A stretch of 44,540 bases of DNA, taken from sequence record MZ576218. One strand, written 5' to 3'. How positions within the stretch are numbered: the first letter of the stretch is position 1; the number at the start of each line of letters is the position of its first letter. This document shows positions 2,779 through 27,277 of the stretch, piece after piece. The notes under the pieces are model-generated. The model saw nothing but the letters and a program-made list of their open reading frames with translations, did no database searches and had not been told where the DNA came from. This DNA is from Escherichia phage vB_EcoS-phiEc4. The translations under genes were made by a program, and so were the position numbers.

Positions 2779-2781
2779 AGT

Positions 2782-3858
2782 ATGCTATTAACTTTAGCGC
2801 CACAGGGTTTATCTATGAGCTTACTTACATCCCTAATCAGCCATCAGATATGGCTGCAACGCACCGCATCCGGTGAGGTGAAAGACCTCACGCCGTTCAT
2901 TCAGGAGATAAGGGATGAAATCAAACGGCAGGTGCTGTTATTCGGTGACGACGGTCGCAGCACTGCGCGACTGAATAAACTGTTACGCGACCTGGAAGAA
3001 GCACTAACCGGTATTACGGGTGACTGGCAAACAAAGCTAACAGACGACCTTAAGGAACTGGCGGCGTACGAGGCTGAGTGGAACGTAAAGACACTGACCG
3101 CCAACGTAGACGCGGAATTTGTTACGCCTACCGCTGAGCAGGTATGGGCCGCTGCCGAGTTTCAACCATTATCATTGAGCGACAAGCCCGTTGATTTCAC
3201 CAAGCTGATGTCTGGATGGGGCGAAACGGAAGTAGCACGTCTTGTAACTGGAGTTAAGATGGGCTTTGTGCAAGGTCAAACCACACGGCAGATTGTTAAG
3301 AATGTTGTTGGCGCTGGTGGACTAGCCGACATCTCAGAACGTAACGCGGCTACGGTAATCCGCACCGCGCTGTCCCACGTATCCAACGAGGCCCGTAACG
3401 AGACGTACCGCCAGAACGACAACATCATCGAGAAGTACGAGTGGGTGTCAACGCTTGACAGCCGCACCAGTACGATTTGCAGGGTCAGAGACGGGATGAC
3501 GTGGGAAATTGGTAAGGGGCCGATGCCCCCAGCCCATCCGAACTGCCGGTCGTGCACGGCTCCGGTAATCAGTTCCGAGTTCGACTTCCTCGATAAAGGC
3601 GCAAAACGCGCGGCTAAAGGCGCGGAAGGTGGCACTCAGGTAAGCGCAGACACCACTTACTACGAGTTCCTTAAACAACAACCGGCGTGGTTTCAGGACC
3701 AGGCGCTCGGCCCGGTGCGAGGTAAGATTTTCCGTAACAGCGGTATATCGCCGGAAGAGTTTCGCGTAATATCTGTAGATGGTTTCGGGAATCCGCTCAC
3801 GCTTAAGCAGATGGCGGAACTCGATAAACGTGTTGCTGATTATCTGAAAGGGGAATAA
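2782..3858 (+). CDS. head morphogenesis protein (Mu F / SPP1 gp7-like minor head protein)
   Basis: 358 aa following portal; C-terminal Cys/His-rich region typical of the F-like family. Confidence 0.6.
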   Translation: MLLTLAPQGLSMSLLTSLISHQIWLQRTASGEVKDLTPFIQEIRDEIKRQVLLFGDDGRSTARLNKLLRDLEEALTGITGDWQTKLTDDLKELAAYEAEWNVKTLTANVDAEFVTPTAEQVWAAAEFQPLSLSDKPVDFTKLMSGWGETEVARLVTGVKMGFVQGQTTRQIVKNVVGAGGLADISERNAATVIRTALSHVSNEARNETYRQNDNIIEKYEWVSTLDSRTSTICRVRDGMTWEIGKGPMPPAHPNCRSCTAPVISSEFDFLDKGAKRAAKGAEGGTQVSADTTYYEFLKQQPAWFQDQALGPVRGKIFRNSGISPEEFRVISVDGFGNPLTLKQMAELDKRVADYLKGE

Positions 3859-4319
3859 TGATGGGCTTTTTCAAAGTAACTGACGTACCGTCTCGTCGCG
3901 TAGTCCAGTACGCCCGCGTGTCTGGCTCTGGCGAGAACGTGGTATTTATTGGGGGCGAAAGTGTACTCGGTACACCGGTAGATGATATGCCGTTTGCAGA
4001 TAAAACCGGTATTGCGTTGCCCGCCGCCGGTATGCTTTATGAAATTCCGTATCTGGCGGACGCTGGCGACGTGTATTTCTCTGCGCAACCCGCCGATACA
4101 GAACTGACAGACGGCAGCGCAGCTATCACTGTCGAAGTTAAGGCAGGTAAAGCGCCATATGCTCTGACCTGGTACAAAGACGGTAAGGAAGTGGTCAACG
4201 CCCCTGAAGAGGCTCTGTCTCTGACGGTTAATGCGGTCGGCGAATATTTCGTTAAAGTTACTGATGCCGATGGTGTAGAGGCGGTGAGTAAAGCGGCGAA
4301 GGTTACTAAGCCAGAATGA
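3858..4319 (+). CDS. Ig-like domain protein (possible capsid-associated)
   Basis: 153 aa; C-terminal segment ALTWYKDGKEV...GEYFVKVTDADG resembles an Ig-like fold; RBS AAAGGGG upstream. Confidence 0.45.
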   Translation: MMGFFKVTDVPSRRVVQYARVSGSGENVVFIGGESVLGTPVDDMPFADKTGIALPAAGMLYEIPYLADAGDVYFSAQPADTELTDGSAAITVEVKAGKAPYALTWYKDGKEVVNAPEEALSLTVNAVGEYFVKVTDADGVEAVSKAAKVTKPE

Positions 4320-4340
4320 TAAAAAGCCGGAATGATAAAA

Positions 4341-4368
4341 AGCCCCGCTATGGGGCTTTATTTTTATA
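4341..4368. terminator. bidirectional rho-independent terminator
   Basis: AGCCCC-GCTAT-GGGGCT hairpin flanked by A-run upstream and TTTATTTTTAT downstream; sits between convergent genes 3858..4319(+) and 4432..4776(-). Confidence 0.7.
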
Positions 4369-4431
4369 TGAACATCGCGGTGATAGCCGCAGCCGATACC
4401 CTCAAAACAAAATAAAACATCACACTATTTG

Positions 4432-4776
4432 TCATTTGCATTTCTCGTCGTATGTTTGTTGTAACTGCGACAGACGATTACCGGCTGTCATCTCGTCCAT
4501 AGAAGGCCCGGCGCCCGTGTCCATAAAGAACAGCGGAACAATCAGGAATGCGCCTGTAACACCGAGTACAACGTTAGTACCTATTTGCTTATTAACACGG
4601 TGCGTAGCGTTGGCTTGAGCTTGTTTTGTCGCGGCGATTCTCGATAGTAACTGATTACATGTTGCCGTTGTATCCCCCGCCTGATAAACCTGTAAAGCTG
4701 GGTCTGGCAACGACCTTACGCAACCACTCAAACAAACGGCTACAACACCTGCTACTGCTAATTTAATATATTTCAT
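4432..4776 (-). CDS. lipoprotein with C-terminal hydrophobic segment (superinfection-exclusion candidate)
   Basis: 114 aa; signal peptide with lipobox LSGC (MKYIKLAVAGVVAVCLSGC); own promoter upstream; antisense to structural genes. Confidence 0.6.
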   Translation of the reverse strand: MKYIKLAVAGVVAVCLSGCVRSLPDPALQVYQAGDTTATCNQLLSRIAATKQAQANATHRVNKQIGTNVVLGVTGAFLIVPLFFMDTGAGPSMDEMTAGNRLSQLQQTYDEKCK

Positions 4777-5827: not shown

Positions 5828-6532
5828 ATGAATCGTTTTTTACGTTATCCGTTCCAGGAAGAAGCTGGGGCAGAAGATAAAGCTGGTGGCGGTGACGCGC
5901 CGAAAATGTTCACCGCTGAAGAAGTTCAGGCGCTGATTGAGAAAGAAGTTGCCGGGCTTAAGGCTAATCAGGAAGCATTGTTGGCGGAGAAGAAAGAAGC
6001 CGCTCGCAAAGCAAAAGAGGCCGAAGAAGAACGGCAGCGCGCGCACCAGGAGGCGTTAAAAGCCGCTGGTAAGATGGATGAGTTCGAAAAGACGATTCGT
6101 AGCCAGTATGACCCGGTGTTAGCCGAGAAAGACGGTCGCATCTCCAGAATGGCAGAGCGTATCCTCGGCAGCGAACGTAAAGCGGTGCTAGGCTCTTTCG
6201 CGGGTGACTTTATTACCCCAGAAGCAGTGGACATTCTTGCGCCGTTCGTTAAGACTGAGTTCGAAGGCGATGATGTGGTTACTAAGTTTGTTGGTGCAGA
6301 CGGTAACGTAATCACGACTGACCCGGAACAGTTCCGCAAATACTTGCGAGAACACAAAGCGTTTTCACATTTGATTAAAGCAAATGCAGCTTCCGGCGGC
6401 GGGGCTTCCGGTAGCAAAGGCGGCGGGGCCGCACCAGCGTTTAAAGACATGAGTGAAGCGGAGCGTATCGCTCTGTACGAATCGAACCCTGCCGAATTTG
6501 AACGGCAACTTAAAGCCCTGAGGAAAAAATAA
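5828..6532 (+). CDS. scaffolding protein
   Basis: track ORF 5774..6532, first ATG at 5828; coiled-coil-like charged sequence (EAL/KEA repeats), immediately upstream of major capsid gene. Confidence 0.6.
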   Translation: MNRFLRYPFQEEAGAEDKAGGGDAPKMFTAEEVQALIEKEVAGLKANQEALLAEKKEAARKAKEAEEERQRAHQEALKAAGKMDEFEKTIRSQYDPVLAEKDGRISRMAERILGSERKAVLGSFAGDFITPEAVDILAPFVKTEFEGDDVVTKFVGADGNVITTDPEQFRKYLREHKAFSHLIKANAASGGGASGSKGGGAAPAFKDMSEAERIALYESNPAEFERQLKALRKK

Positions 6533-7581
6533 TGGCAATTACTACTATCGGCGACATCGTAACTGGTAAAGAATCGGTAATCCTGTCCTACATGACAGAG
6601 GACCCGGTAGAGAAAACCGCGTTCTTCCAGTCCGGTATCCTTACCTCGACTCCGTATGCCGCCGCTATCGCAAACGGCCCGTCCAACAAAGCGGTCCTGC
6701 CGTACTGGAAAGCTATTGATACCTCTATCGAGCCGAACTACTCGAACGACGTATATCAGGACGTCGCCACCCCGCGTAACGTGCAAACCGGTGAGATGGA
6801 TGTTCGCGTAGCTTACCTGAACGAAGGTTTTGGTCAGGCTGACCTGACGGTAGAACTGACCAGCCAGAATCCGCTGCAATCCGTGGCTTCCCGTCTGGAT
6901 AACTTCTGGCAGCGTCAGGCACAACGCCGTCTTATTGCTACCGCGCTCGGTCTGTACAATGATAACGTAGCGGCTACCGATGCGTACCACGAGCAGAACG
7001 ACATGGTTATTGACGTGTCCGCTACTCTGGGCTTCGACTCCGGCGCGTTCATCGATGCTACCCAGACTATGGGCGATGCGCTGATGGGTAACGGTGGTGA
7101 AGTGCTTGGCGCTATCGCGATGCACAGCTTCGTTTATGCGCAGGCGCGTAAGCAGCAGCTTATCGACTTCATTCGCGACGCTGACAACAACACCATGTTC
7201 GCCACCTACCAGGGCTATCGTGTGATTGTTGACGACAGCATGACCGTAGTCGGAACTGGCAACAGCCGTAAGTTCATCTCCATCATCTTCGGCAACGGTG
7301 CTATCGGTTACGGTGAAGGTTCTCCGTCCAACCCGCTGGAATACGAGCGCGAAGCGTCCCGCGGCAACGGCGGCGGCGTTGAAACCCTGTGGACCCGTAA
7401 GACCTGGTTACTACATCCGTTTGGTTACAGCTTCACCAGTGCAGTAATCACTGGCAACGGCACCGAGACTACCCCGCGCTCTGCTTCCTGGCAGGACCTG
7501 GCGAACGCCTCCAACTGGAACCGTGTGGTTGACCGCAAGCACGTACCGATTGCCTTCCTGGTAACTGGTGTCGGTGCTTAA
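6532..7581 (+). CDS. major capsid protein
   Basis: 349 aa after scaffold; followed by strong terminator; position and size typical of HK97-fold capsid protein. Confidence 0.8.
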   Translation: MAITTIGDIVTGKESVILSYMTEDPVEKTAFFQSGILTSTPYAAAIANGPSNKAVLPYWKAIDTSIEPNYSNDVYQDVATPRNVQTGEMDVRVAYLNEGFGQADLTVELTSQNPLQSVASRLDNFWQRQAQRRLIATALGLYNDNVAATDAYHEQNDMVIDVSATLGFDSGAFIDATQTMGDALMGNGGEVLGAIAMHSFVYAQARKQQLIDFIRDADNNTMFATYQGYRVIVDDSMTVVGTGNSRKFISIIFGNGAIGYGEGSPSNPLEYEREASRGNGGGVETLWTRKTWLLHPFGYSFTSAVITGNGTETTPRSASWQDLANASNWNRVVDRKHVPIAFLVTGVGA

Positions 7582-15054: not shown

Positions 15055-17386
15055 TGTAGCTAGTTTAGTAGTAAAAGTAACAGAGCAAGGCGCGAAAGCC
15101 ACATCAGACCGTCTTGACAACCTTTCAAAGTCCGCAAAAGTAGCGGGGGCCGCCGTAGCAGGCCTTGCTTCTATCGTAGCGGCTACCGCGTATAAAGCTG
15201 CCCAAGAACTGGTTGACTCACAGCGGCAACTGGACAAGATGTCCGCCAGTTTGAAGACCTTAACAGGAAGTACCCAAGGTGCTAAACAGGCGCTAAGTAT
15301 CCTGCAAGATTTTGCCCGCGATACCCCATACGGACTGGAGCAGGCGGTGGAAGGCTTCCGTAAGCTGGTGGCCCTTGGCCTTACCCCATCCGAGGAGGCG
15401 TTGCGGTCCTACGGCAATACCGCATCGGCTATGGGCAAGGACCTTAATCAGATGATTGAGGCGGTAGCCGACGCCAGTACGTTTGAGTTCGAACGCCTAA
15501 AAGAATTCGGCATCAAAGCCAAGCAGAACAAAAACGACGTAGAGTTTACATTCCAGGGGACAACAACCGTAGTTAAGAAAAGCGCTGCCGATATTGAGCA
15601 GTATTTACTTAATATTGGTAACGTAAATTTTGCCGGTGCCATGGCGGACCAGGCCAACACCCTTAATGGCGCTATCGCGAGCGCCAGTGACTCATGGTCG
15701 CAGCTAAAAATGACGCTTGCCACCAGTCTTGATGTTGGCGCACTTGCGGAACCTATCAGGTATATCGATGACTTGATCCAGGAATTAAACGCGTCTGTTG
15801 CTTCCGGTGAATTAGCCGCTGAAATGCAGATGTGGGGCGACATAGCGTCGGAAGTAGGAAGCGCTATCGAGATGTCATTCGACGCTGCGTTTGGCTTTGT
15901 TGGTGATGCCATCAACGGGCTTAATGAACTGTGGGATTTCAGCAGCAAGAGTATTACCGATAGCGGAGAACAAACGGCCACCACCATCGCTGAATCCGCC
16001 GCCGATGCTCTTGACTTCATCGCGGAAGAGTTCACCGCGATGGAGAGATTCTTTGAAGATATGGTTAAAGGTGCTCAGGACGCTGGCCGTCTTGTACGCG
16101 CCGCTTTTACCCCCGGGGAATCAGTAGACGTAGCTAAAAATATCAACTTCCAGCTTGGCATGGCTTTGGATACCCAGCGCGATGTCGCCGACGTTACGCG
16201 TAAAAGTTTCCGCGAACAGGTAGAAGCTCAACAGGATATTGTAGCGTTAAAACGCGCGGCGTATGACATCGATAAGGAGTCCGCAAAAGCTGAGGGGTTA
16301 AACAAATTTAAGGTAACCGGAACCGGCGGCGGTTCTGACGATGACGGGTCAGCCGCAAAAGCCGCTAAGAAAGCAGCGGACGCGTTCGAGCGCCAGAAAA
16401 AGGCGGCGGAAGACTTCTACTATCAGTCAATCCATCTTAATGATGACGTATTTCAGAAAATAGAAGCTAACCAGGAAGAGCAACTGTCTAAGTTGCAGGA
16501 TTTTTATAGCAATAAGCTTCTTAGCGACCAACAGTACGAAAACGCCAAGACGCAGATTATGCTCTCTGCCGAACAGGCCCGCCAGGAAGAACTGGACAAG
16601 AAAAGGAAAGAAGCCCAGGAGAAGCAGCAGAAAGGTGATGATTTCATGGCTCAGATTATGGGCCAGAACGCCACCGAGCTTGAGCTTCTGGATATTCAGG
16701 AACAGCAGAAACTGGCGGTAGCCGATAAGTACCGGGAACAAGGTCTGATTAGCGAGAAGCAGTATCAGGCCGCGCTTAACGCCATCAACGAGCAGTACGC
16801 AACCAAGCGTGCCGACGCAACGGCAACAGCTTTCGGTAACATGGCTTCAAACATCGGGTCTGCGTTGGGCGAGGCTTCTGGTGCGTACAAGGCATTCGCT
16901 ATCGTACAGGCCACTATAGCCACGTACACCGCAGCTATCGAGGCGTACAAGTCAACGGCTGCTATCCCTGTTGTTGGCCCGTTCCTGGCCCCTGTAGCCG
17001 CTGCCGCTGCCGTCGGGGCAGGTATGGCGCAGATTTCCGCTATCAGGTCAGCACGTGAACAGGGTGGACAGTTATCCGCCGGGCAGGCTTCCACCATCGC
17101 TGAACGCGGTAAACCCGAAGTTATCATGCCCGCTGGCGCATCGCGTGTGCGCACCGCGCAGCAGATGAAAGAAATTATGGGGCAAAACGGGTCTTCTTCC
17201 GGCCCATCTAATGTTACCATTGTAAATAATACATCGAGTCAGATTGGCAACGTATCCACCGAGCAGGATGATGAAGGCCGTCTGCGTATCATCATAGAAG
17301 AGCAAGTTGCTGCATCTTTGCAGAACAGCAACAGTAAGATTAGCAAGGCCCGCAAGGCCACAAGAAACGCGCCGGGGTTTAAATAA
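15047..17386 (+). CDS. tail tape measure protein
   Basis: 779 aa, Ala/Gln/Glu-rich coiled-coil-like sequence, downstream of chaperone pair. Confidence 0.8.
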   Translation: MADVASLVVKVTEQGAKATSDRLDNLSKSAKVAGAAVAGLASIVAATAYKAAQELVDSQRQLDKMSASLKTLTGSTQGAKQALSILQDFARDTPYGLEQAVEGFRKLVALGLTPSEEALRSYGNTASAMGKDLNQMIEAVADASTFEFERLKEFGIKAKQNKNDVEFTFQGTTTVVKKSAADIEQYLLNIGNVNFAGAMADQANTLNGAIASASDSWSQLKMTLATSLDVGALAEPIRYIDDLIQELNASVASGELAAEMQMWGDIASEVGSAIEMSFDAAFGFVGDAINGLNELWDFSSKSITDSGEQTATTIAESAADALDFIAEEFTAMERFFEDMVKGAQDAGRLVRAAFTPGESVDVAKNINFQLGMALDTQRDVADVTRKSFREQVEAQQDIVALKRAAYDIDKESAKAEGLNKFKVTGTGGGSDDDGSAAKAAKKAADAFERQKKAAEDFYYQSIHLNDDVFQKIEANQEEQLSKLQDFYSNKLLSDQQYENAKTQIMLSAEQARQEELDKKRKEAQEKQQKGDDFMAQIMGQNATELELLDIQEQQKLAVADKYREQGLISEKQYQAALNAINEQYATKRADATATAFGNMASNIGSALGEASGAYKAFAIVQATIATYTAAIEAYKSTAAIPVVGPFLAPVAAAAAVGAGMAQISAIRSAREQGGQLSAGQASTIAERGKPEVIMPAGASRVRTAQQMKEIMGQNGSSSGPSNVTIVNNTSSQIGNVSTEQDDEGRLRIIIEEQVAASLQNSNSKISKARKATRNAPGFK

Positions 17387-19685: not shown

Positions 19686-22243
19686 TCCTGCACTACACGC
19701 GAAATGCCGACGGGGCTTTCGACCGTACAAAACACGTCGGGATGCCGATGGAGTTTGTCGTTAACCGTATCCCGGACGGCGTTCCGGTACGCGTCTATCT
19801 TGGCGAGATTGGTGATGATACTGATGTTACAGACGACTTCGACGCGCTCAAAGACGAGGACGCCGTGTACCACATTATTGAGGGCGCTGGCGGCGGCATT
19901 GGCGACGCCATCGGGAGTGTATTCAGTTTCATCCTTAAGCCAATCGCCAAATTGTTCGGGCTAAACACAGCGGCTAACGCTAATTATTCCGCTACCAACA
20001 ATCAGGCTACGTCGCCTAACAACAGTCTCACCGACCGCTCAAACAAGCCACGACCTTATGAGCGTTCCTATGATATCTGCGGGACAGTGCAGACCATCCC
20101 CAATGACCTGATGCAGACATATAAGGTGTTTAATGCCTCTGGGGTACTTATTGAATATGCGTACTATGACGCCGGTCGAGGGTATCTGCATATTGAGGAA
20201 GACGGTGTAACTGAGGCAGATACCCGAATCAGCGAGATAACTGGCTCGTCGGTGGCGGTGTATTCCCCTTACACTTCGCCGAATAACACCAACGCCCCAC
20301 AATTGCATATTGGCGACCCGATAGACCAGAAATTGTACGTTACATTTAAAAACGCCGATGTCGATGGCGCTGTTCTTCCCGCCCCTAATGATATCGCTAT
20401 AGACGTGCAGGACTACACTGTCCAGCGGCAGGGAACAACCGGCGTTGTAGTAGGCGATGACGCTGGTTTCGATGAGTTTTTGGCGGTCGGGGACCTGGCA
20501 TACTTCGATAACGTATATGCGGATACAACCCCAGGGTCTTTGGGTAATGAGGTTAACCTGGACGGGAGGTACACGGTTCTTTCTGTTAGTGAAACGACCC
20601 TTATTGTGGACGTCAGTACAAATCAATCAATATGGAACCAGCTAGGGTCATCGGTGTGGTTTATAGGTGAAGAGGGTAACCATCTCATAGGTCCGGCGGA
20701 CACTTACGCGGCTTCCCTCTCTGAATGGGCGTACATCACCCGCGGTACGGTCAACCGTGTTGTAGCCAATGTCGCCGCCAGCAACGGCATGTATAAATAT
20801 AACGGCGATTATAACCGTGCCTCCGTTACGGTGGAACTGCAATACCAGATGGTGGACGAATTGAAACAGCCCGTTGGTGGCATATTCACCGTGCAAGGCA
20901 CTGTTACAGGGAGAAACACCGATTACACTGGTATTACCCTATACGGAAGCTTGCCTACCGCTTCCAGATTCCGCGCCCGTATGCGCCGTGTTTCCGATAC
21001 TGATAAAGATTTTGAGGGTACTGTTAGCGACGAGGTTACTTTCACTAATCTGTACGGGCAGTCACTGGATACAACCCCGCACTACGGCAACCGCACTACT
21101 GTACACTGCGCTCGTAAACAAACCCCACGTGCCGCCGAGGTGTCAGAACCGGAACTGCGCATGATTGCTACCGAGATGTGCTACAAATACTTAGGTAACG
21201 GCGTATTCGATACGGTAATGACACCGAACACTCAGGCCGTGCAGTCGCTAATCAGGCTGGCGCGTGACCCTGTGGTGGGTAATCTGGAACTGACAACGGC
21301 AAATATGGACAAGTTACTTGCCGTGCAGGAAGAAATTGAGTCGTATTTTGGCAGTGAATTAGCCGGGCAGTTCTGCTACACGTTCGACGACTACGACACC
21401 ACGATGCAGGACATCGTTCAGACCATCGCGGAAGCCGTTTTCTGTACTGCGTACCGTAAAGGTGCGGATATTATGCTGCGATTTGATCGTCCGGTTGCGG
21501 GGCCCGAAATGGTGTTCACCCACCGCAGCAAAACTACTGGTACAGAGAAATGGACGCGCACGTTCAACGATTCGACAACCTATGATAGCCTGTCGTTCTC
21601 ATACATCGACCCGGATACTAACGTACAGGAAACGATTTATATCCCGGAAGAACTCGGAGCAAACACCGAGGAATATGAATCGAAGGGCGTACGTAACTAT
21701 CAGCAGGCATATTGGCTGGCGTGGCGTCGCTACCAGCGCAACGCGTTAAGTAAAGTTGTCGTAGAGTTCGAAGCTACCGAAGAGGGTGCACTCGCTACAC
21801 CGGGTGGTGTAATCAGCGTGGTTAAAGGTTCACGTATCGCGCCTCAGGATGGTTATGTTGTTGCCGTTAATGGGCTTACGCTGACACTGTCGCAACCTGT
21901 TACGTTTACCCCCGGCGATGACCACTCCATCATCCTCAAGAAGCGCGATGGCTCCGTGCAGAGTATTTCTGTTATCAAAGGAAGCCACGACCGCGAGGTG
22001 ATTATGCTCTCCGCGCCGGAGGAGGCAATCTACACGGGGAATAGCGCACTAAAAACTGAGTTTTCATTCGGCAACGAAGCAAGGCATAATGCTCAGAAGA
22101 TAGTTGTTTCTTCAATCGACCCCGGCGACGACCGCACGGTCAAGATTACTGGTTACAACTATGACGACGGATTCTATAAATACGACGGCGTCGCGCAACA
22201 CGGCAGCAGCTTCTCCGACGGATTCAGCAATGGTTTTAATTAA
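19676..22243 (+). CDS. tail tip / central fiber protein (J-like host specificity protein)
   Basis: 855 aa; track start is TTG at 19676, first ATG at 19742; largest tail gene after tape measure. Confidence 0.65.
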   Translation: MAIILHYTRNADGAFDRTKHVGMPMEFVVNRIPDGVPVRVYLGEIGDDTDVTDDFDALKDEDAVYHIIEGAGGGIGDAIGSVFSFILKPIAKLFGLNTAANANYSATNNQATSPNNSLTDRSNKPRPYERSYDICGTVQTIPNDLMQTYKVFNASGVLIEYAYYDAGRGYLHIEEDGVTEADTRISEITGSSVAVYSPYTSPNNTNAPQLHIGDPIDQKLYVTFKNADVDGAVLPAPNDIAIDVQDYTVQRQGTTGVVVGDDAGFDEFLAVGDLAYFDNVYADTTPGSLGNEVNLDGRYTVLSVSETTLIVDVSTNQSIWNQLGSSVWFIGEEGNHLIGPADTYAASLSEWAYITRGTVNRVVANVAASNGMYKYNGDYNRASVTVELQYQMVDELKQPVGGIFTVQGTVTGRNTDYTGITLYGSLPTASRFRARMRRVSDTDKDFEGTVSDEVTFTNLYGQSLDTTPHYGNRTTVHCARKQTPRAAEVSEPELRMIATEMCYKYLGNGVFDTVMTPNTQAVQSLIRLARDPVVGNLELTTANMDKLLAVQEEIESYFGSELAGQFCYTFDDYDTTMQDIVQTIAEAVFCTAYRKGADIMLRFDRPVAGPEMVFTHRSKTTGTEKWTRTFNDSTTYDSLSFSYIDPDTNVQETIYIPEELGANTEEYESKGVRNYQQAYWLAWRRYQRNALSKVVVEFEATEEGALATPGGVISVVKGSRIAPQDGYVVAVNGLTLTLSQPVTFTPGDDHSIILKKRDGSVQSISVIKGSHDREVIMLSAPEEAIYTGNSALKTEFSFGNEARHNAQKIVVSSIDPGDDRTVKITGYNYDDGFYKYDGVAQHGSSFSDGFSNGFN

Positions 22244-22255
22244 AGAGGACTCTAT

Positions 22256-24241
22256 ATGTCAAGCGGATGCGGTGACGTTTTAAGCCTGGCGGATTTACAG
22301 ACCGCCAAGAAACATCAGATTTTCGAGGCCGAGGTTATCACTGGCAAATCCGGCGGTGTAGCTACGGGTGCAGACATTGATTACGCAACAAATCAGGTTA
22401 CCGGGCAGACGCAGAAGACGCTTCCTGCCGTGTTGCGCGACGCGGGTTTTTCTCCGGTGTCATGGGATTTCTCCACAGGCGGCACGTTAACCGTTAACGA
22501 CCGGGACAAGGTGGTGTATGACCCTGTTAGCGAAACATGGTACTCGTACGCAGGTACGTTACCAGTTGTTGTCCCTGCATCGTTTAATCCAGTCGGTAAC
22601 GCTAACTGGAAGCCGCAGACAGACCCAAATTTGCGTAATGATTTGGCGTCAAGTACCGCCGGTTTGGGGGCTTCACTGGTGTCTTTTTCCAACGGTAACA
22701 CCGTTGAAACATTATCTGACGCGGACGGTGCCAAGAACATAGGCAGCGGCGAAAGGAGTTTGCTTGCACGTAACAATGATATTAAGCATTCAGGAGACTT
22801 CTCTACCCTGCAAGCTGCAGTAGATGCATCGTTACCGAAAAATGACTTACTTATTTCCCCTGGTGAATATACTGAAAAAGTTACTATTGGTAGCGCACAG
22901 TTAAAAGGCGTTGGTGGGGCTGTAGTACTAAAAACACCAGCAGACTTTACAAACACTGTTCAGGTTAATTTATCGACGCCTCATTGGCAATTCCGCCATA
23001 GTGGCGGTTTTGCTATAGATGGTTCTGGTACAACCGGGGCCGTAGGTATTAGTTTTGACCCGTCAGACCAATATTCCGGACGTCATAATTTTAGTGATTT
23101 ATACATACACAACATCAACAAGGCAATTCAGAAGCCTTCCGGGAACATCGGTAATACATGGAGAAATATTGGGGTATCTACGTGTGATTGGGGGTATTAC
23201 GCGATTAGTGGCTCAGAGATGCATTGCGGGGCCGATACCCTCTACAATATCCACTTCGACGGCATCTCCACCTATGCCGTCTACCTAAACGGCACTGCCG
23301 ATAACGGCGGGATAGGCGGATGGTGGCTTAAAGACTCCATTATTGAGGCTTCCGGAGGTGGCGGGATATATTTAAAAAGCAAATCAGGTGACTGCCCTAC
23401 ATCTCCATGCGGGGTATCCAATGTATGGACGGAAGCGATTGCAACATCATCGGCTGTTCAGGTAGACGGCGTGGCGCAAAAACCGCGAGTTCTCAAGTTG
23501 GTAGACACTGCGATATTCTTTGCTGAGTATTCTTATCTCAACAACATCGAGCTATCCAACTCCAACTTAGTAACTTATGGTTGCCGTTTTGACAACGCTG
23601 ATGGTAATCAGGATATTGTAGTGGATGCACAAAGCACCATTGTAGCCCACGATGTGTATTTAAACGGCAGTTCTGGAAAGGACGTTATTGTAGAGTCTGT
23701 CGCGTCGCAATCCGCAACGGTAGCCACTACAAACTTGTCTCTGCGAGGAAATTTAACAAGGGGACGAGTGTTTAATACGCCGACGGGGAATAAGTTAAAA
23801 GCTATCACATTTGACTCAGGTAGCCATAATTTTTCTGGTAGCGGTACCGTTAACGGTTCGACTGTATCTGACGGACTTCACGCCGCTACATGTACCGAAT
23901 TTTCATTCCCTGGGTCCGGTTTATATGAAATGGTAGCGTCAAGAACGACACTTACATCCGGTAGATGGTACGTGTGGGGCGTCAACTCTCGCCTCCAATC
24001 AGGAACAGCAGATGTGAGTATAACGTCAGGTATTACTATGGGTAGCGTTTATACTAAGTCTGGTGAGTGGATTAGCACATTTGGGGTGGGTAAAGCTTCC
24101 GCTAACGGTACTGTAAGTCTGTACGTCTCTACTGCGGGAGGTTCAGGTGCTGTTATCAGATTTAGCGACTTCTTCATCGCTGAGTTTACGACGCAGGCTC
24201 AGGCTTTAGCTTTCGCTAACTCCCGAATGTCGTTGGCTTAA
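22256..24241 (+). CDS. tailspike protein (beta-helix depolymerase-like)
   Basis: 661 aa; N-terminal particle-binding-like domain; Gly/Asn/Ser/Thr-rich repetitive C-terminal region typical of right-handed beta-helix tailspikes; last gene of structural block. Confidence 0.65.
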   Translation: MSSGCGDVLSLADLQTAKKHQIFEAEVITGKSGGVATGADIDYATNQVTGQTQKTLPAVLRDAGFSPVSWDFSTGGTLTVNDRDKVVYDPVSETWYSYAGTLPVVVPASFNPVGNANWKPQTDPNLRNDLASSTAGLGASLVSFSNGNTVETLSDADGAKNIGSGERSLLARNNDIKHSGDFSTLQAAVDASLPKNDLLISPGEYTEKVTIGSAQLKGVGGAVVLKTPADFTNTVQVNLSTPHWQFRHSGGFAIDGSGTTGAVGISFDPSDQYSGRHNFSDLYIHNINKAIQKPSGNIGNTWRNIGVSTCDWGYYAISGSEMHCGADTLYNIHFDGISTYAVYLNGTADNGGIGGWWLKDSIIEASGGGGIYLKSKSGDCPTSPCGVSNVWTEAIATSSAVQVDGVAQKPRVLKLVDTAIFFAEYSYLNNIELSNSNLVTYGCRFDNADGNQDIVVDAQSTIVAHDVYLNGSSGKDVIVESVASQSATVATTNLSLRGNLTRGRVFNTPTGNKLKAITFDSGSHNFSGSGTVNGSTVSDGLHAATCTEFSFPGSGLYEMVASRTTLTSGRWYVWGVNSRLQSGTADVSITSGITMGSVYTKSGEWISTFGVGKASANGTVSLYVSTAGGSGAVIRFSDFFIAEFTTQAQALAFANSRMSLA

Positions 24242-24919: not shown

Positions 24920-26340
24920 TTCTTACTCCTACGTTTCATATAATTAAGTAGTTCATCCTGTACAGACCTTTTCTCGTCTGTACGCGCCGCAACAACCTCG
25001 TCCAGAGTGTCTTTAGCAACGATGTGATAAAGGAACACCGGGCGCTCGTGACCCGCCTGTTTCTGGCGGACTGGGCCTATGCGCTCAACAACCTGCAAAT
25101 AGTGCTCAAGGTTCCAGCCTTGCGAGATGAACGCCAGATGATGACCCCCGTCCTGTAAATTCAAACCATGCCCGGCTGACGCAGGATGCACGCATAAAAT
25201 CTCGATTTCCCCACGGTTCCACGCTTCCATCTGCTTGTTCCCCCTAGCGCCTTTGGCGAACGCCTGTGCCTGTGGGAATCGCTTAAGGATACGCTCCAGT
25301 TCGTGTTTAAACTGATAGGCTACCAGCAACGGCGCACCCTGCAACTCCTCAACAATCGACTCGAGCGCATCCAGTTTCGTGTCGTGCACTTTCTCCCAGT
25401 CTTTGGTCGCTTCGCCGTCTGGCCCGGATACATATACAGCACCAGATGCAATCTGCAAGCACTTTGAGGTCTTCGCCGCAGCGTTAGCCGCTTCAACTTC
25501 CCCGCTCTCCAGTTCTGCGAATAACTTCTCCTCCATATCTATGTACGCCTGACGCGCTTTCTTCGGCAGGTCTATTTCCACCGGTACGATAACAGGCGCT
25601 TCACAACCAAACCACTCGGCAGGGTCTATGGTCAGGCTGATGTCTTTCATCTTCTGATGAATCTCATTATCCGCACCCGGTCGTGCATGATACTCGCGGG
25701 CCATAGCCGATTTACCTTTCTGTACCGAGTTAAACCAGCGGTCGGTGAATGCTGTGTACGAAGAGCCGAGGCGCTCGCCAGCGTCGATAAACCAGTTCTG
25801 ACCCCACAAGTCTTTGAGGCCGTTTGGTGACGGTGTGCCTGTCAGGTTGATGAAACGCTTAACCTTTCCGAACGCAACCTTGCTGAGCGCCTTTGCCCGC
25901 TTGCTACCACCCGAACGGCTGCGGAACGATTTAAGCTTCGTGCTTTCATCGGCAACGATAACCGTAAAAGGCCAGTCGTCTTTGCCGTAGTAGTCAATTA
26001 GCCACTCGATAACTTCGTAGTTAGTGCACACCACGTTAGCATCTGACTCCAGCGCTGCGATGCGGCGCTTCTCCGAACCAGTTGCATCTACGACACGCAG
26101 ACAAGGGAATTGCCATTTCTCTTGTTCAGCAGGCCACGTACCGGACGCAACACGTAACGGGGCAAGGATTAACACGCGGTCCTCTTCCGTAAGCTGCCCG
26201 TTGCGGAACAGGCGGTTGAGCACCCACATAGTGGAGGAGGTTTTACCTCCCCCCATTCCGCACCAGATATTACAGCGCGGGTGTTGCAGCATGAACGAGG
26301 TCATGAGCTTCTGGTACTCGCGTCTTTGAAACTTACTCAT
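24916..26340 (-). CDS. SNF2-family helicase
   Basis: 474 aa; Walker A GMGGGKT, DExx box DESTK, motif III LTGTPSPN. Confidence 0.75.
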   Translation of the reverse strand: MSKFQRREYQKLMTSFMLQHPRCNIWCGMGGGKTSSTMWVLNRLFRNGQLTEEDRVLILAPLRVASGTWPAEQEKWQFPCLRVVDATGSEKRRIAALESDANVVCTNYEVIEWLIDYYGKDDWPFTVIVADESTKLKSFRSRSGGSKRAKALSKVAFGKVKRFINLTGTPSPNGLKDLWGQNWFIDAGERLGSSYTAFTDRWFNSVQKGKSAMAREYHARPGADNEIHQKMKDISLTIDPAEWFGCEAPVIVPVEIDLPKKARQAYIDMEEKLFAELESGEVEAANAAAKTSKCLQIASGAVYVSGPDGEATKDWEKVHDTKLDALESIVEELQGAPLLVAYQFKHELERILKRFPQAQAFAKGARGNKQMEAWNRGEIEILCVHPASAGHGLNLQDGGHHLAFISQGWNLEHYLQVVERIGPVRQKQAGHERPVFLYHIVAKDTLDEVVAARTDEKRSVQDELLNYMKRRSKK

Positions 26341-27277
26341 TTACCGCCCCCATGAATGCCTTTATAAATTCAGCGGCTACTTGCGGGACGATGGCATTGC
26401 CGTAACCGCGCAATCGTCCCACTCTGGCGGGTATCCCATTAGCCAGCGGGAATGCGCCGGGTTCAACTGGCCGGAATTTTCCATCCCGGCAGCCGAGCCA
26501 GTCAGCATCTGACCAGAAGCCGTGATGCGAATTGGTTGCGTTATCGCCGCTGCTTGTGCCACGTCTTGAGGTCCACCCTTCCTCTGAATCTCCGATAGTG
26601 CCCCCTCTAGTGTTCTCACGTTCTTTTCCCCGTCCGCACTGCGAGGAGTAGGCCAATTCGTCAGTTTTAGCCCCTGTTCCGTTGAGTAGTCCAGCCTGTC
26701 GAATGTTCTGTCCTTCCCGTCCTTGCGGATAACAGTCTCTCCGCTCCCTTTGTAATCGTTCGCGGTCGGTGTCGGCCAATTCGTGCGCACCAAAGAAGAG
26801 TCGTTCTCTTTTGTGCGGAGCGCCGACGCTACAAGCTGGGAGTACGGCAAACCCGACGGCGTAGTCTTCTCCTTCCAGGTGAGTTTGTAAATCGCACATC
26901 CACGATTTTGCAATTGCTGGCGCAACCTGTTCCCCAAAGAGGACTGGAGGGTGGCACTCGCTGATGAGGTCAAGGAATACGGGCGCGAGGTGTCTCGGGT
27001 CGAACTGTCCGAGTTGCTTTCCTGCCGTGCTAAACGGTTGGCAAGGCGGGCTTCCCGTCCAGAGAGGCGCATCTTCCGGAACTCCCGCAAGTCTGAGCGC
27101 GAGAGGCCAGCCGCCGATACCAGCGAAAAAATGACACTGGGTGAATCCGTCGAGGTCTTCTGGCTTAACTTCAGTAATGCTTCTTTCATCTACAACTCCA
27201 AAAGGTATGTGACCCTGTTTTATTAATTCACGCAGCCACGCGGCTGCGCCTTTATCCCATTCGTTGTAATAGTTCAT
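26333..27277 (-). CDS. DNA (cytosine-5) methyltransferase
   Basis: 314 aa; motif I FAGIGG, motif IV SPPCQPFS, motif VIII KRERLFF, motif X GNAIVPQVA; atypical low-complexity variable region. Confidence 0.7.
   Translation of the reverse strand: MNYYNEWDKGAAAWLRELIKQGHIPFGVVDERSITEVKPEDLDGFTQCHFFAGIGGWPLALRLAGVPEDAPLWTGSPPCQPFSTAGKQLGQFDPRHLAPVFLDLISECHPPVLFGEQVAPAIAKSWMCDLQTHLEGEDYAVGFAVLPACSVGAPHKRERLFFGAHELADTDRERLQRERRDCYPQGREGQNIRQAGLLNGTGAKTDELAYSSQCGRGKERENTRGGTIGDSEEGWTSRRGTSSGDNATNSHHGFWSDADWLGCRDGKFRPVEPGAFPLANGIPARVGRLRGYGNAIVPQVAAEFIKAFMGAVNE

Follow-up and report, generated by a model that had tools for sequence, protein, structure and literature searches.

A reading frame nested in a phage C5 cytosine methyltransferase gene probably encodes the second chain of an M.EcoHK31I-like enzyme

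Introduction

M.EcoHK31I (YGGCCR) is the alpha/beta C5 cytosine methyltransferase of Escherichia coli HK31, reportedly described by Lee, Kam & Shaw in 1995. Here we compare it with a C5 methyltransferase gene on the minus strand of Escherichia phage vB_EcoS-phiEc4 (sequence record MZ576218), which contains a second long open reading frame (ORF) in its +1 frame. The annotated gene is referred to as alpha and the nested one as beta, and the whole 44,540-nucleotide stretch that was analysed is called the window. In M.EcoHK31I the DNA for the beta chain lies wholly within the alpha gene but is read in a different frame, and both chains are required (PMC2836561, PMC3404938). Motifs I–VIII and X are found in its alpha chain and motif IX in its beta chain; beta does not need its first ~41 residues, and its translation can start at internal Met codons (PMC2836561, PMC3404938). 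M.AquI is divided differently, with motifs I–VIII in alpha and motifs IX and X in beta, and these two enzymes are the only ones named as exceptions to the monomeric C5 methylases (PMC3404938).

The nested ORF of the window contains tandem units, a feature with a counterpart in another group of phage enzymes. M.SPRI, M.Phi3TI and M.Rho11sI of Bacillus phages are orphan multispecific C5 methylases whose variable region consists of tandem exchangeable units of ~40–50 aa, and in these enzymes the units are proven target recognition domains (TRDs) in a single chain.

Direct homologues of both frames have been annotated in phage K1ind1 (GU196279), as ORF29 ('putative C-specific methylase') and ORF28 ('putative Mte8-like protein'), in a record that carries no functional interpretation. 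The 'Mte8-like protein', which corresponds to beta, is among nine genes that differ between one poorly and two well performing therapeutic K1 siphophages (PMC5582158).

Results

The alpha frame carries the catalytic motifs

The initial annotation had identified the ORF at 26333–27277 as a C5 methyltransferase with motifs I, IV, VIII and X in order, and this identification was borne out. The Pfam family DNA_methylase (PF00145) matched alpha with 59.9 bits, against a curated cut-off of 22 (E 3.8e-16), and the protein also matched phrog_363 (E 9e-88). Read directly from the sequence, motifs I (FxGxG), IV (PCQ with the catalytic Cys), VI, VIII and X follow one another in that order (Table 1). The PF00145 match is confined to residues 68–165, and M.HhaI aligned with the same portion of alpha by phmmer, likewise ending at residue 165. 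From residue 165 to residue 253 the protein is 63% G/R/E/T/S/D, in agreement with the low-complexity composition first reported for this region, and is unconserved among relatives. No recognisable TRD was found between motifs VIII and X in the PF00145 and HhaI alignments or in the conservation of the relatives, and the sole motif IX-like string of this frame, RPVEPGAFPLANGIP, is weak. Alpha therefore does not carry a TRD and motif IX between motifs VIII and X of the same chain. Because it is without a TRD and a convincing motif IX, alpha would need a partner.

Motif I of alpha is preceded by a string resembling motifs II and III, YYNEWDKGAAAWL...GVVDERSITEVKPEDL (YYNEWD...VDERSITEV; aa 3–42, 27152–27271, minus strand). 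This string was compared with YSNEWDKYAQE...GDITQV of HhaI, a part of the alignment that is non-significant. Motifs I and IV are just 21 aa apart, and the placing of the II/III-like string ahead of motif I is common to all relatives. In the alpha family the order of motifs II–III and I may be permuted.

A second gene is nested in the +1 frame

An ORF that had been overlooked in the initial annotation lies in the +1 frame of the same strand, entirely inside alpha (26377–27189 within 26333–27277), which is the nesting of the M.EcoHK31I type. Its product matched phrog_1008 (E 1e-61). PHROGs thus keeps the two frames as two families, phrog_363 and phrog_1008, each of which is labelled DNA methyltransferase. 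At least 4798 homologues of beta were found, and a search with the beta core gave 10,186 clusters at 50% identity (E <= 1e-3).

Beta consists of a leader of ~80 aa, an N-block, a tandem array of cassettes that each open with WPTPxAxD, a C-block and a short tail. The translation includes LYKLTWK..TPSG..L.AS.RT and two WPTPxAxD units, and the beta-frame sequence includes TNWPTPTANDYK. The positions of these parts, and of the alpha motifs that they overlap, are given in Table 1.

Table 1. Coordinates of the alpha and beta genes and of their parts in the window
Feature	Position	Strand	Residues	Basis and remarks
Alpha gene, annotated C5 methyltransferase	26333..27277	-	314 aa	Catalytic/AdoMet (S-adenosylmethionine)-binding chain; motifs I, IV, VI, VIII, X
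Alpha motif I, FFAGIGG	27110..27130	-	alpha 50-56	Sequence reading, HhaI match
Alpha motif IV, PPCQPFS	27029..27049	-	alpha 77-83	Sequence reading, HhaI match; contains catalytic Cys79
Alpha motif VI variant, GEQV	26924-26935	-	alpha 115-118	Sequence reading
Alpha motif VIII variant, APHKRERLFF	26792-26821	-	alpha 153-162	Sequence reading
Alpha 'low-complexity variable region'	26519..26785	-	alpha 165-253	Passenger translation, putatively serving as linker
Alpha motif X, GNAIVPQVA	26375..26401	-	alpha 293-301	Sequence reading; conserved in alignment of relatives
Beta gene, +1 frame, entirely inside alpha	26377..27189	-	270 aa	ORF list
GGAG, Shine-Dalgarno-like	27196..27199	-		6 nt upstream of beta ATG at 27187-27189
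Beta leader	26950..27189	-	beta 1-80	Open, without protein constraint; overlaps alpha motifs I and IV
Dual-coding stretch	26785..26949	-		Beta N-block LQSSLGNRL..YKLTWKEKTTPSG..LVASALRTKE; alpha motifs VI and VIII; both frames conserved
Beta cassette 1, type 2, WPTPTANDYKGSGETVIRKDGKDRTFDRLDYSTEQGLKLTN	26656..26778	-		
Beta cassette 2, type 1 (commonest type), WPTPRSADGEKNVRTLEGALSEIQRKGGPQDVAQAAAITQ	26536..26655	-		
Beta C-block	26419..26535	-		Overlaps conserved alpha stretch FWSDADWLGCRDGKFRPVEPGAFPLANGIPARV; both frames conserved
Motif IX-like part of beta C-block	26419-26466	-		By-eye pattern

Selection acts on alpha, then beta, then alpha

Constraint along the locus was measured as the entropy of 4-fold degenerate sites in those Gly, Ala, Pro, Val and Thr codons of alpha that are conserved, in a set of 50 sequences whose alpha identity is below 80%. 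These sites were saturated over alpha codons 1–100, with an entropy of 1.70 bits. The value fell to 0.94 bits over codons 101–135 and to 0.75 bits over codons 136–165, and the sites were frozen over codons 271–292 (0.16 bits), where the C-block of beta is conserved; over codons 293–314 it was 1.12 bits. The falling entropy therefore indicates that a second constraint starts near alpha codon 110, at about residue 81 of beta.

The codon phase in which most variation occurs also changed along the locus. Up to about codon 160, the most variable phase was position 3 of alpha. Through the variable region and codons 271–290 it was position 1 of alpha, which is position 3 of beta, and alpha-type periodicity, with position 3 most variable, was back from about codon 291. 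The order of selection is thus alpha, then beta, then alpha, and both frames are constrained over alpha codons ~110–165 and 254–292. Within cassette types, variability at beta position 3 greatly exceeded that at positions 1 and 2 (1.22 bits vs 0.32 bits at position 2 and 0.64 bits at position 1 in type 1 cassettes), and amino acid identity inside cassettes was 0.73–0.79 in the beta frame vs 0.25–0.47 in the alpha frame. The periodicity and identity of the beta frame in the cassettes therefore indicate that the apparent low-complexity TRD of alpha is a passenger translation. The suggestion that this region is a degenerate TRD, or one of relaxed specificity, was not upheld, since the frame selected there is the +1 frame. 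A degenerate enzyme or a non-globular TRD is not the best reading either; the candidate for the recognition part, which is conserved, is the product of the separate nested gene.

The openness of each frame was assessed by resampling codons from gene-wide usage, which replaced synonymous shuffling within the region, a test that was too weak. When codons synonymous in beta were resampled, the number of relatives expected to have no stop in the alpha frame over the whole cassette array was 4.7 ± 1.9; the frame was stop-free in 47 of 47. Such openness would be expected if motif X has to remain joined to the rest of alpha. Of 50 diverse relatives, 46 have an ATG of the +1 frame at alpha codons 22–45 and a frame that is open from there to codon 110; the expected number was 8.5 ± 2.6. 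The +1 ORF is conserved as a protein, down to 31–50% identity, in phages that have reached saturation at synonymous sites.

Both frames contain motif IX-like strings at 26419–26470 (minus strand), because the CCC and GGG runs of this segment read Pro and Gly in each. The string of alpha is weaker than that of beta, and the 4-fold sites are almost invariant in 50 divergent sequences. With a stretch of ~60 nt that is nearly frozen in both frames, the locus provides a clean natural example of long-lasting dual coding.

The nested layout is conserved in distant phages

A tblastn search with the +1 protein gave matches in 242 phage records, ranging from Escherichia and Klebsiella phages to Burkholderia, Rhodobacter and Xanthomonas phages. 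In every case inspected the match was offset by +1 from the annotated methylase coding sequence (N15 gene 58, Erwinia phage Eho59, Klebsiella phage S9a, Rhodobacter phage RcExplorer, the T4-like KMB43 and 'Dunaliella virus SI2'). Nesting was seen in 78 of 80 loci from IMG/VR (31–95% identity); in these, motifs I, IV, VI, VIII and X are all in one frame, a +1 frame containing an LMGxP string lies within its span, and the remaining frame is closed. Of 80 loci from the genomes of bacteria, mostly Proteobacteria, 69 had the same layout, with median stop-to-stop distances of 374, 312 and 24 codons for the three frames, the third being closed. Beta was never met as a separate gene in either set of 80 loci. 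The two frames thus exist and nest, selection falls on them in complementary and partly shared segments, and the layout is conserved across very distant phages. Although the literature has it as an exception, the nested alpha/beta layout is the rule in a very large phage and prophage family (>10,000 clusters at 50% identity).

A search for restriction-linked relatives on plasmids gave matches that were mostly on phage-sized plasmids (~27–120 kb) and on Ralstonia megaplasmids. A search for a single-chain relative, with the catalytic domain joined to beta, gave only three alpha-to-beta fusion proteins. These are probably errors, because their junctions all differ and two of the three lose motifs VI and VIII.

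In some relatives (P0296, P0283, P0319 and P0261) the beta ORF is without its usual stop and continues in frame into other domains. The partners are a full Dam N6-adenine methylase (PF05869, 179.8 bits), a DUF2800/PD-(D/E)XK nuclease and sub-threshold HNH-like matches. These read-throughs may be true fusions, or upstream extensions of the ORF of the next gene.

The annotation of beta is uneven. It is mostly given none, and is otherwise called hypothetical or 'Mte8-like', or called in place of alpha, or the gene is broken into pseudogene fragments. In the homologue of the E. coli Ec1117 prophage (3378–4547), RefSeq/PGAP gives two 'incomplete' pseudogene fragments that flank the variable region, and in metagenome gene calls the called frame is either alpha or beta.

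Beta is built from cassettes

The cassettes of beta are ~30–45 aa each, and ~40 aa in the window phage. Regular-expression counts gave from one to about nine cassettes per beta; betas that seemed to have none were fragments or had cassettes that the pattern missed. The cassettes include at least 15 recurrent types. Their arrangement is highly variable: the 136 representatives show 126 distinct arrangements, and the 120 closest relatives show 46. The window phage carries a type 2 followed by a type 1 cassette, and K1ind1 carries type 2 only; the two loci differ by an exact in-frame indel of 120 nt (40 codons), placed 3 codons off the bounds of cassette 2. BLAST matches of the locus fall in two pieces because of this indel. 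The cassette sets differ in almost every relative, which suggests that the cassettes may be swappable specificity modules. As far as the literature that we searched shows, these cassette combinatorics are undescribed.

Like the SPR/phi3T-type enzymes, the locus has short, exchangeable units arrayed in tandem in its variable region. In those enzymes the units lie within one chain, whereas here the cassettes are in a separate nested chain. No similarity to the Bacillus phage multispecific enzymes turned up in the phage tblastn search, and no direct comparison was made.

It is possible, though we regard it as doubtful, that each WPTPxAxD cassette is an independent target-recognition unit, and that the enzyme is a multispecific methylase whose protected sites change as ~120-nt cassettes are gained, lost or exchanged in frame. 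With types 2 and 1, the window phage would then protect one site class more than K1ind1 (type 2), and the family would amount to a vast natural collection of DNA-recognition modules for a C5 methylase. The cassettes may also bear on host range: if they set specificity, they would help to predict the restriction systems evaded by a therapeutic phage, and would supply a parts list for engineered targeted methylases.

Discussion

The locus was compared with known two-chain enzymes by their published descriptions. As in M.EcoHK31I, beta is nested in another frame of the alpha gene and alpha carries motifs of the I–VIII set together with motif X. The dispensable N terminus and internal starts of M.EcoHK31I beta are paralleled here by the unconstrained leader of beta. 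The anatomy matches that of M.EcoHK31I on every point tested. There are also differences: M.EcoHK31I belongs to a type II restriction-modification system, whereas the gene of the window is an orphan in a lytic phage, and its beta chain is 176 aa long, compared with 270 aa and tandem cassettes here. M.AquI (CYCGRG) is likewise a natural two-polypeptide C5 methylase split within the variable region, but motif X is in its second chain, whereas GNAIVPQVA is in the alpha frame of the window.

We conclude that the locus probably encodes an orphan phage-borne C5 cytosine methyltransferase of the M.EcoHK31I kind, made of two chains from two nested minus-strand genes. Alpha would be the large domain, catalytic and AdoMet-binding, and its middle third a tolerated, probably disordered linker, whose sequence would be dictated by the beta frame and which would remain open for the sole purpose of keeping motif X joined to the chain. 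Translation of beta probably begins at an ATG of its own (27189) behind the GGAG. Beta would supply the parts that alpha is without and play the small (recognition) domain, thereby determining specificity; built from cassettes, it is the likely specificity subunit. The two chains would associate like those of M.EcoHK31I, and the complex would methylate phage DNA and so protect it from host restriction.

Several points weigh against this interpretation. The likeness to M.EcoHK31I is one of layout, and the translation of beta and its binding to alpha are inferred. The literature places the TRD of M.EcoHK31I in its alpha chain, whereas the conserved candidates here are in beta. Beta had no Pfam or NCBIfam match. 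The position of its start codon is unconserved among relatives, and at Asp30, inspected in a search for a conserved start position, GAT is used at background rate. Structure prediction, a check proposed at the outset, was run with AlphaFold2 on both chains and gave unusable models, with a predicted local distance difference test score (pLDDT) of 46 for beta and 37 for alpha. Adding the C-block of beta to alpha did not improve the Pfam match, chimeras scoring 62.3 bits vs 62.4 bits without the block and 62.0 bits with a shuffled one. Searches of the PDB by phmmer with beta and with the chimera, and by hmmsearch with a profile of the beta/alpha C-terminal region, found no methylase. No supported motif IX alignment was obtained when alignments of beta were compared by hhalign with HhaI and E. 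coli Dcm, or when beta was compared with Dcm by BLASTP; the best chance match in the HhaI and Dcm comparisons was in the motif III–IV region. By eye, the motif IX-like string near the C terminus of beta resembles LHPRECARVMGYPDSY of HhaI and LTPRECARLMGF of Dcm, a resemblance without support from the Pfam chimeras, the PDB profile, hhalign or BLASTP. Homology of beta to a canonical TRD or motif IX thus had no statistical support by any method, and motif IX is assigned to beta because of the by-eye pattern and the M.EcoHK31I precedent.

The foremost alternative is that beta is a real separate protein, overprinted on the methylase gene, with a job other than methylation (for example as an anti-defence or DNA-binding factor), and that alpha acts alone or with a host factor. 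We consider this unlikely. It is favoured by the lack of statistically supported similarity to a TRD or motif IX, by the low confidence of the predicted structure, and by the ORFs that run on into Dam, PD-(D/E)XK or HNH domains in some relatives. Against an unrelated job, almost all complete loci examined have beta nested within this single methylase family, and a separate beta gene was never seen. The alpha chain, without a TRD and a convincing motif IX, needs a partner, and in M.EcoHK31I the same layout is that of an obligate two-chain methylase.

Still less probable, in our judgement, is a single polypeptide produced by programmed frameshifts, from alpha to beta (+1) after motif VIII and back (-1) before motif X, by which the order I–VIII, TRD, IX, X would be restored. 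The alpha, beta, alpha order of the selected segments is indeed the canonical motif order, and three database proteins are alpha-to-beta fusions. Both frames are constrained over the same DNA, however, and must therefore both be read there; for one shifted chain this would be unnecessary. The beta frame has an ATG and is open for ~80 codons upstream of any useful shift site, and alpha is open through the entire cassette array. The fusions do not agree in their junctions, as described above, and no slippery heptamer was visible at either junction when the sequence was read by eye. To our knowledge, no gene with two compensating frameshifts has been described, and we count this against the frameshift explanation as well.

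The view closest to the initial annotation, that alpha alone is the enzyme with a degenerate or relaxed TRD and that the nested ORF is a non-coding accident, is hardly tenable: most records annotate the alpha ORF and its motifs are intact, but the +1 ORF is conserved as a protein where synonymous sites are saturated, has a codon periodicity of its own and is open far beyond chance.

Genome context

The window phage is a Kagunavirus (Guernseyvirinae), a K1G-like lytic E. coli siphophage, and its methylase locus is 99.8–99.9% identical to those of vB_Eco_K-01 and vB_EcoS-phiEc3. The gene lies in a leftward replication operon in which DNA polymerase, a VRR-NUC nuclease, a 63-aa ORF, the methylase and an SNF2 helicase follow one another with overlapping gene ends. 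No restriction enzyme adjoins the methylase among the neighbouring genes examined, and its earlier description as an orphan methyltransferase of a virulent phage therefore holds.

In Erwinia phage Eho59 (1–315) and in a lambdoid E. coli prophage (2780–3381), a gene for an MT-A70/IME4-type adenine methylase is found just upstream of the nested C5 methylase; the window is without such a gene at the corresponding position. Elsewhere in the window, long minus-strand ORFs of 187–385 aa lie antisense to the structural genes of the plus strand (5968–7125, 15448–16035, 20039–20626 and 22393–22956), and these are probably chance ORFs.

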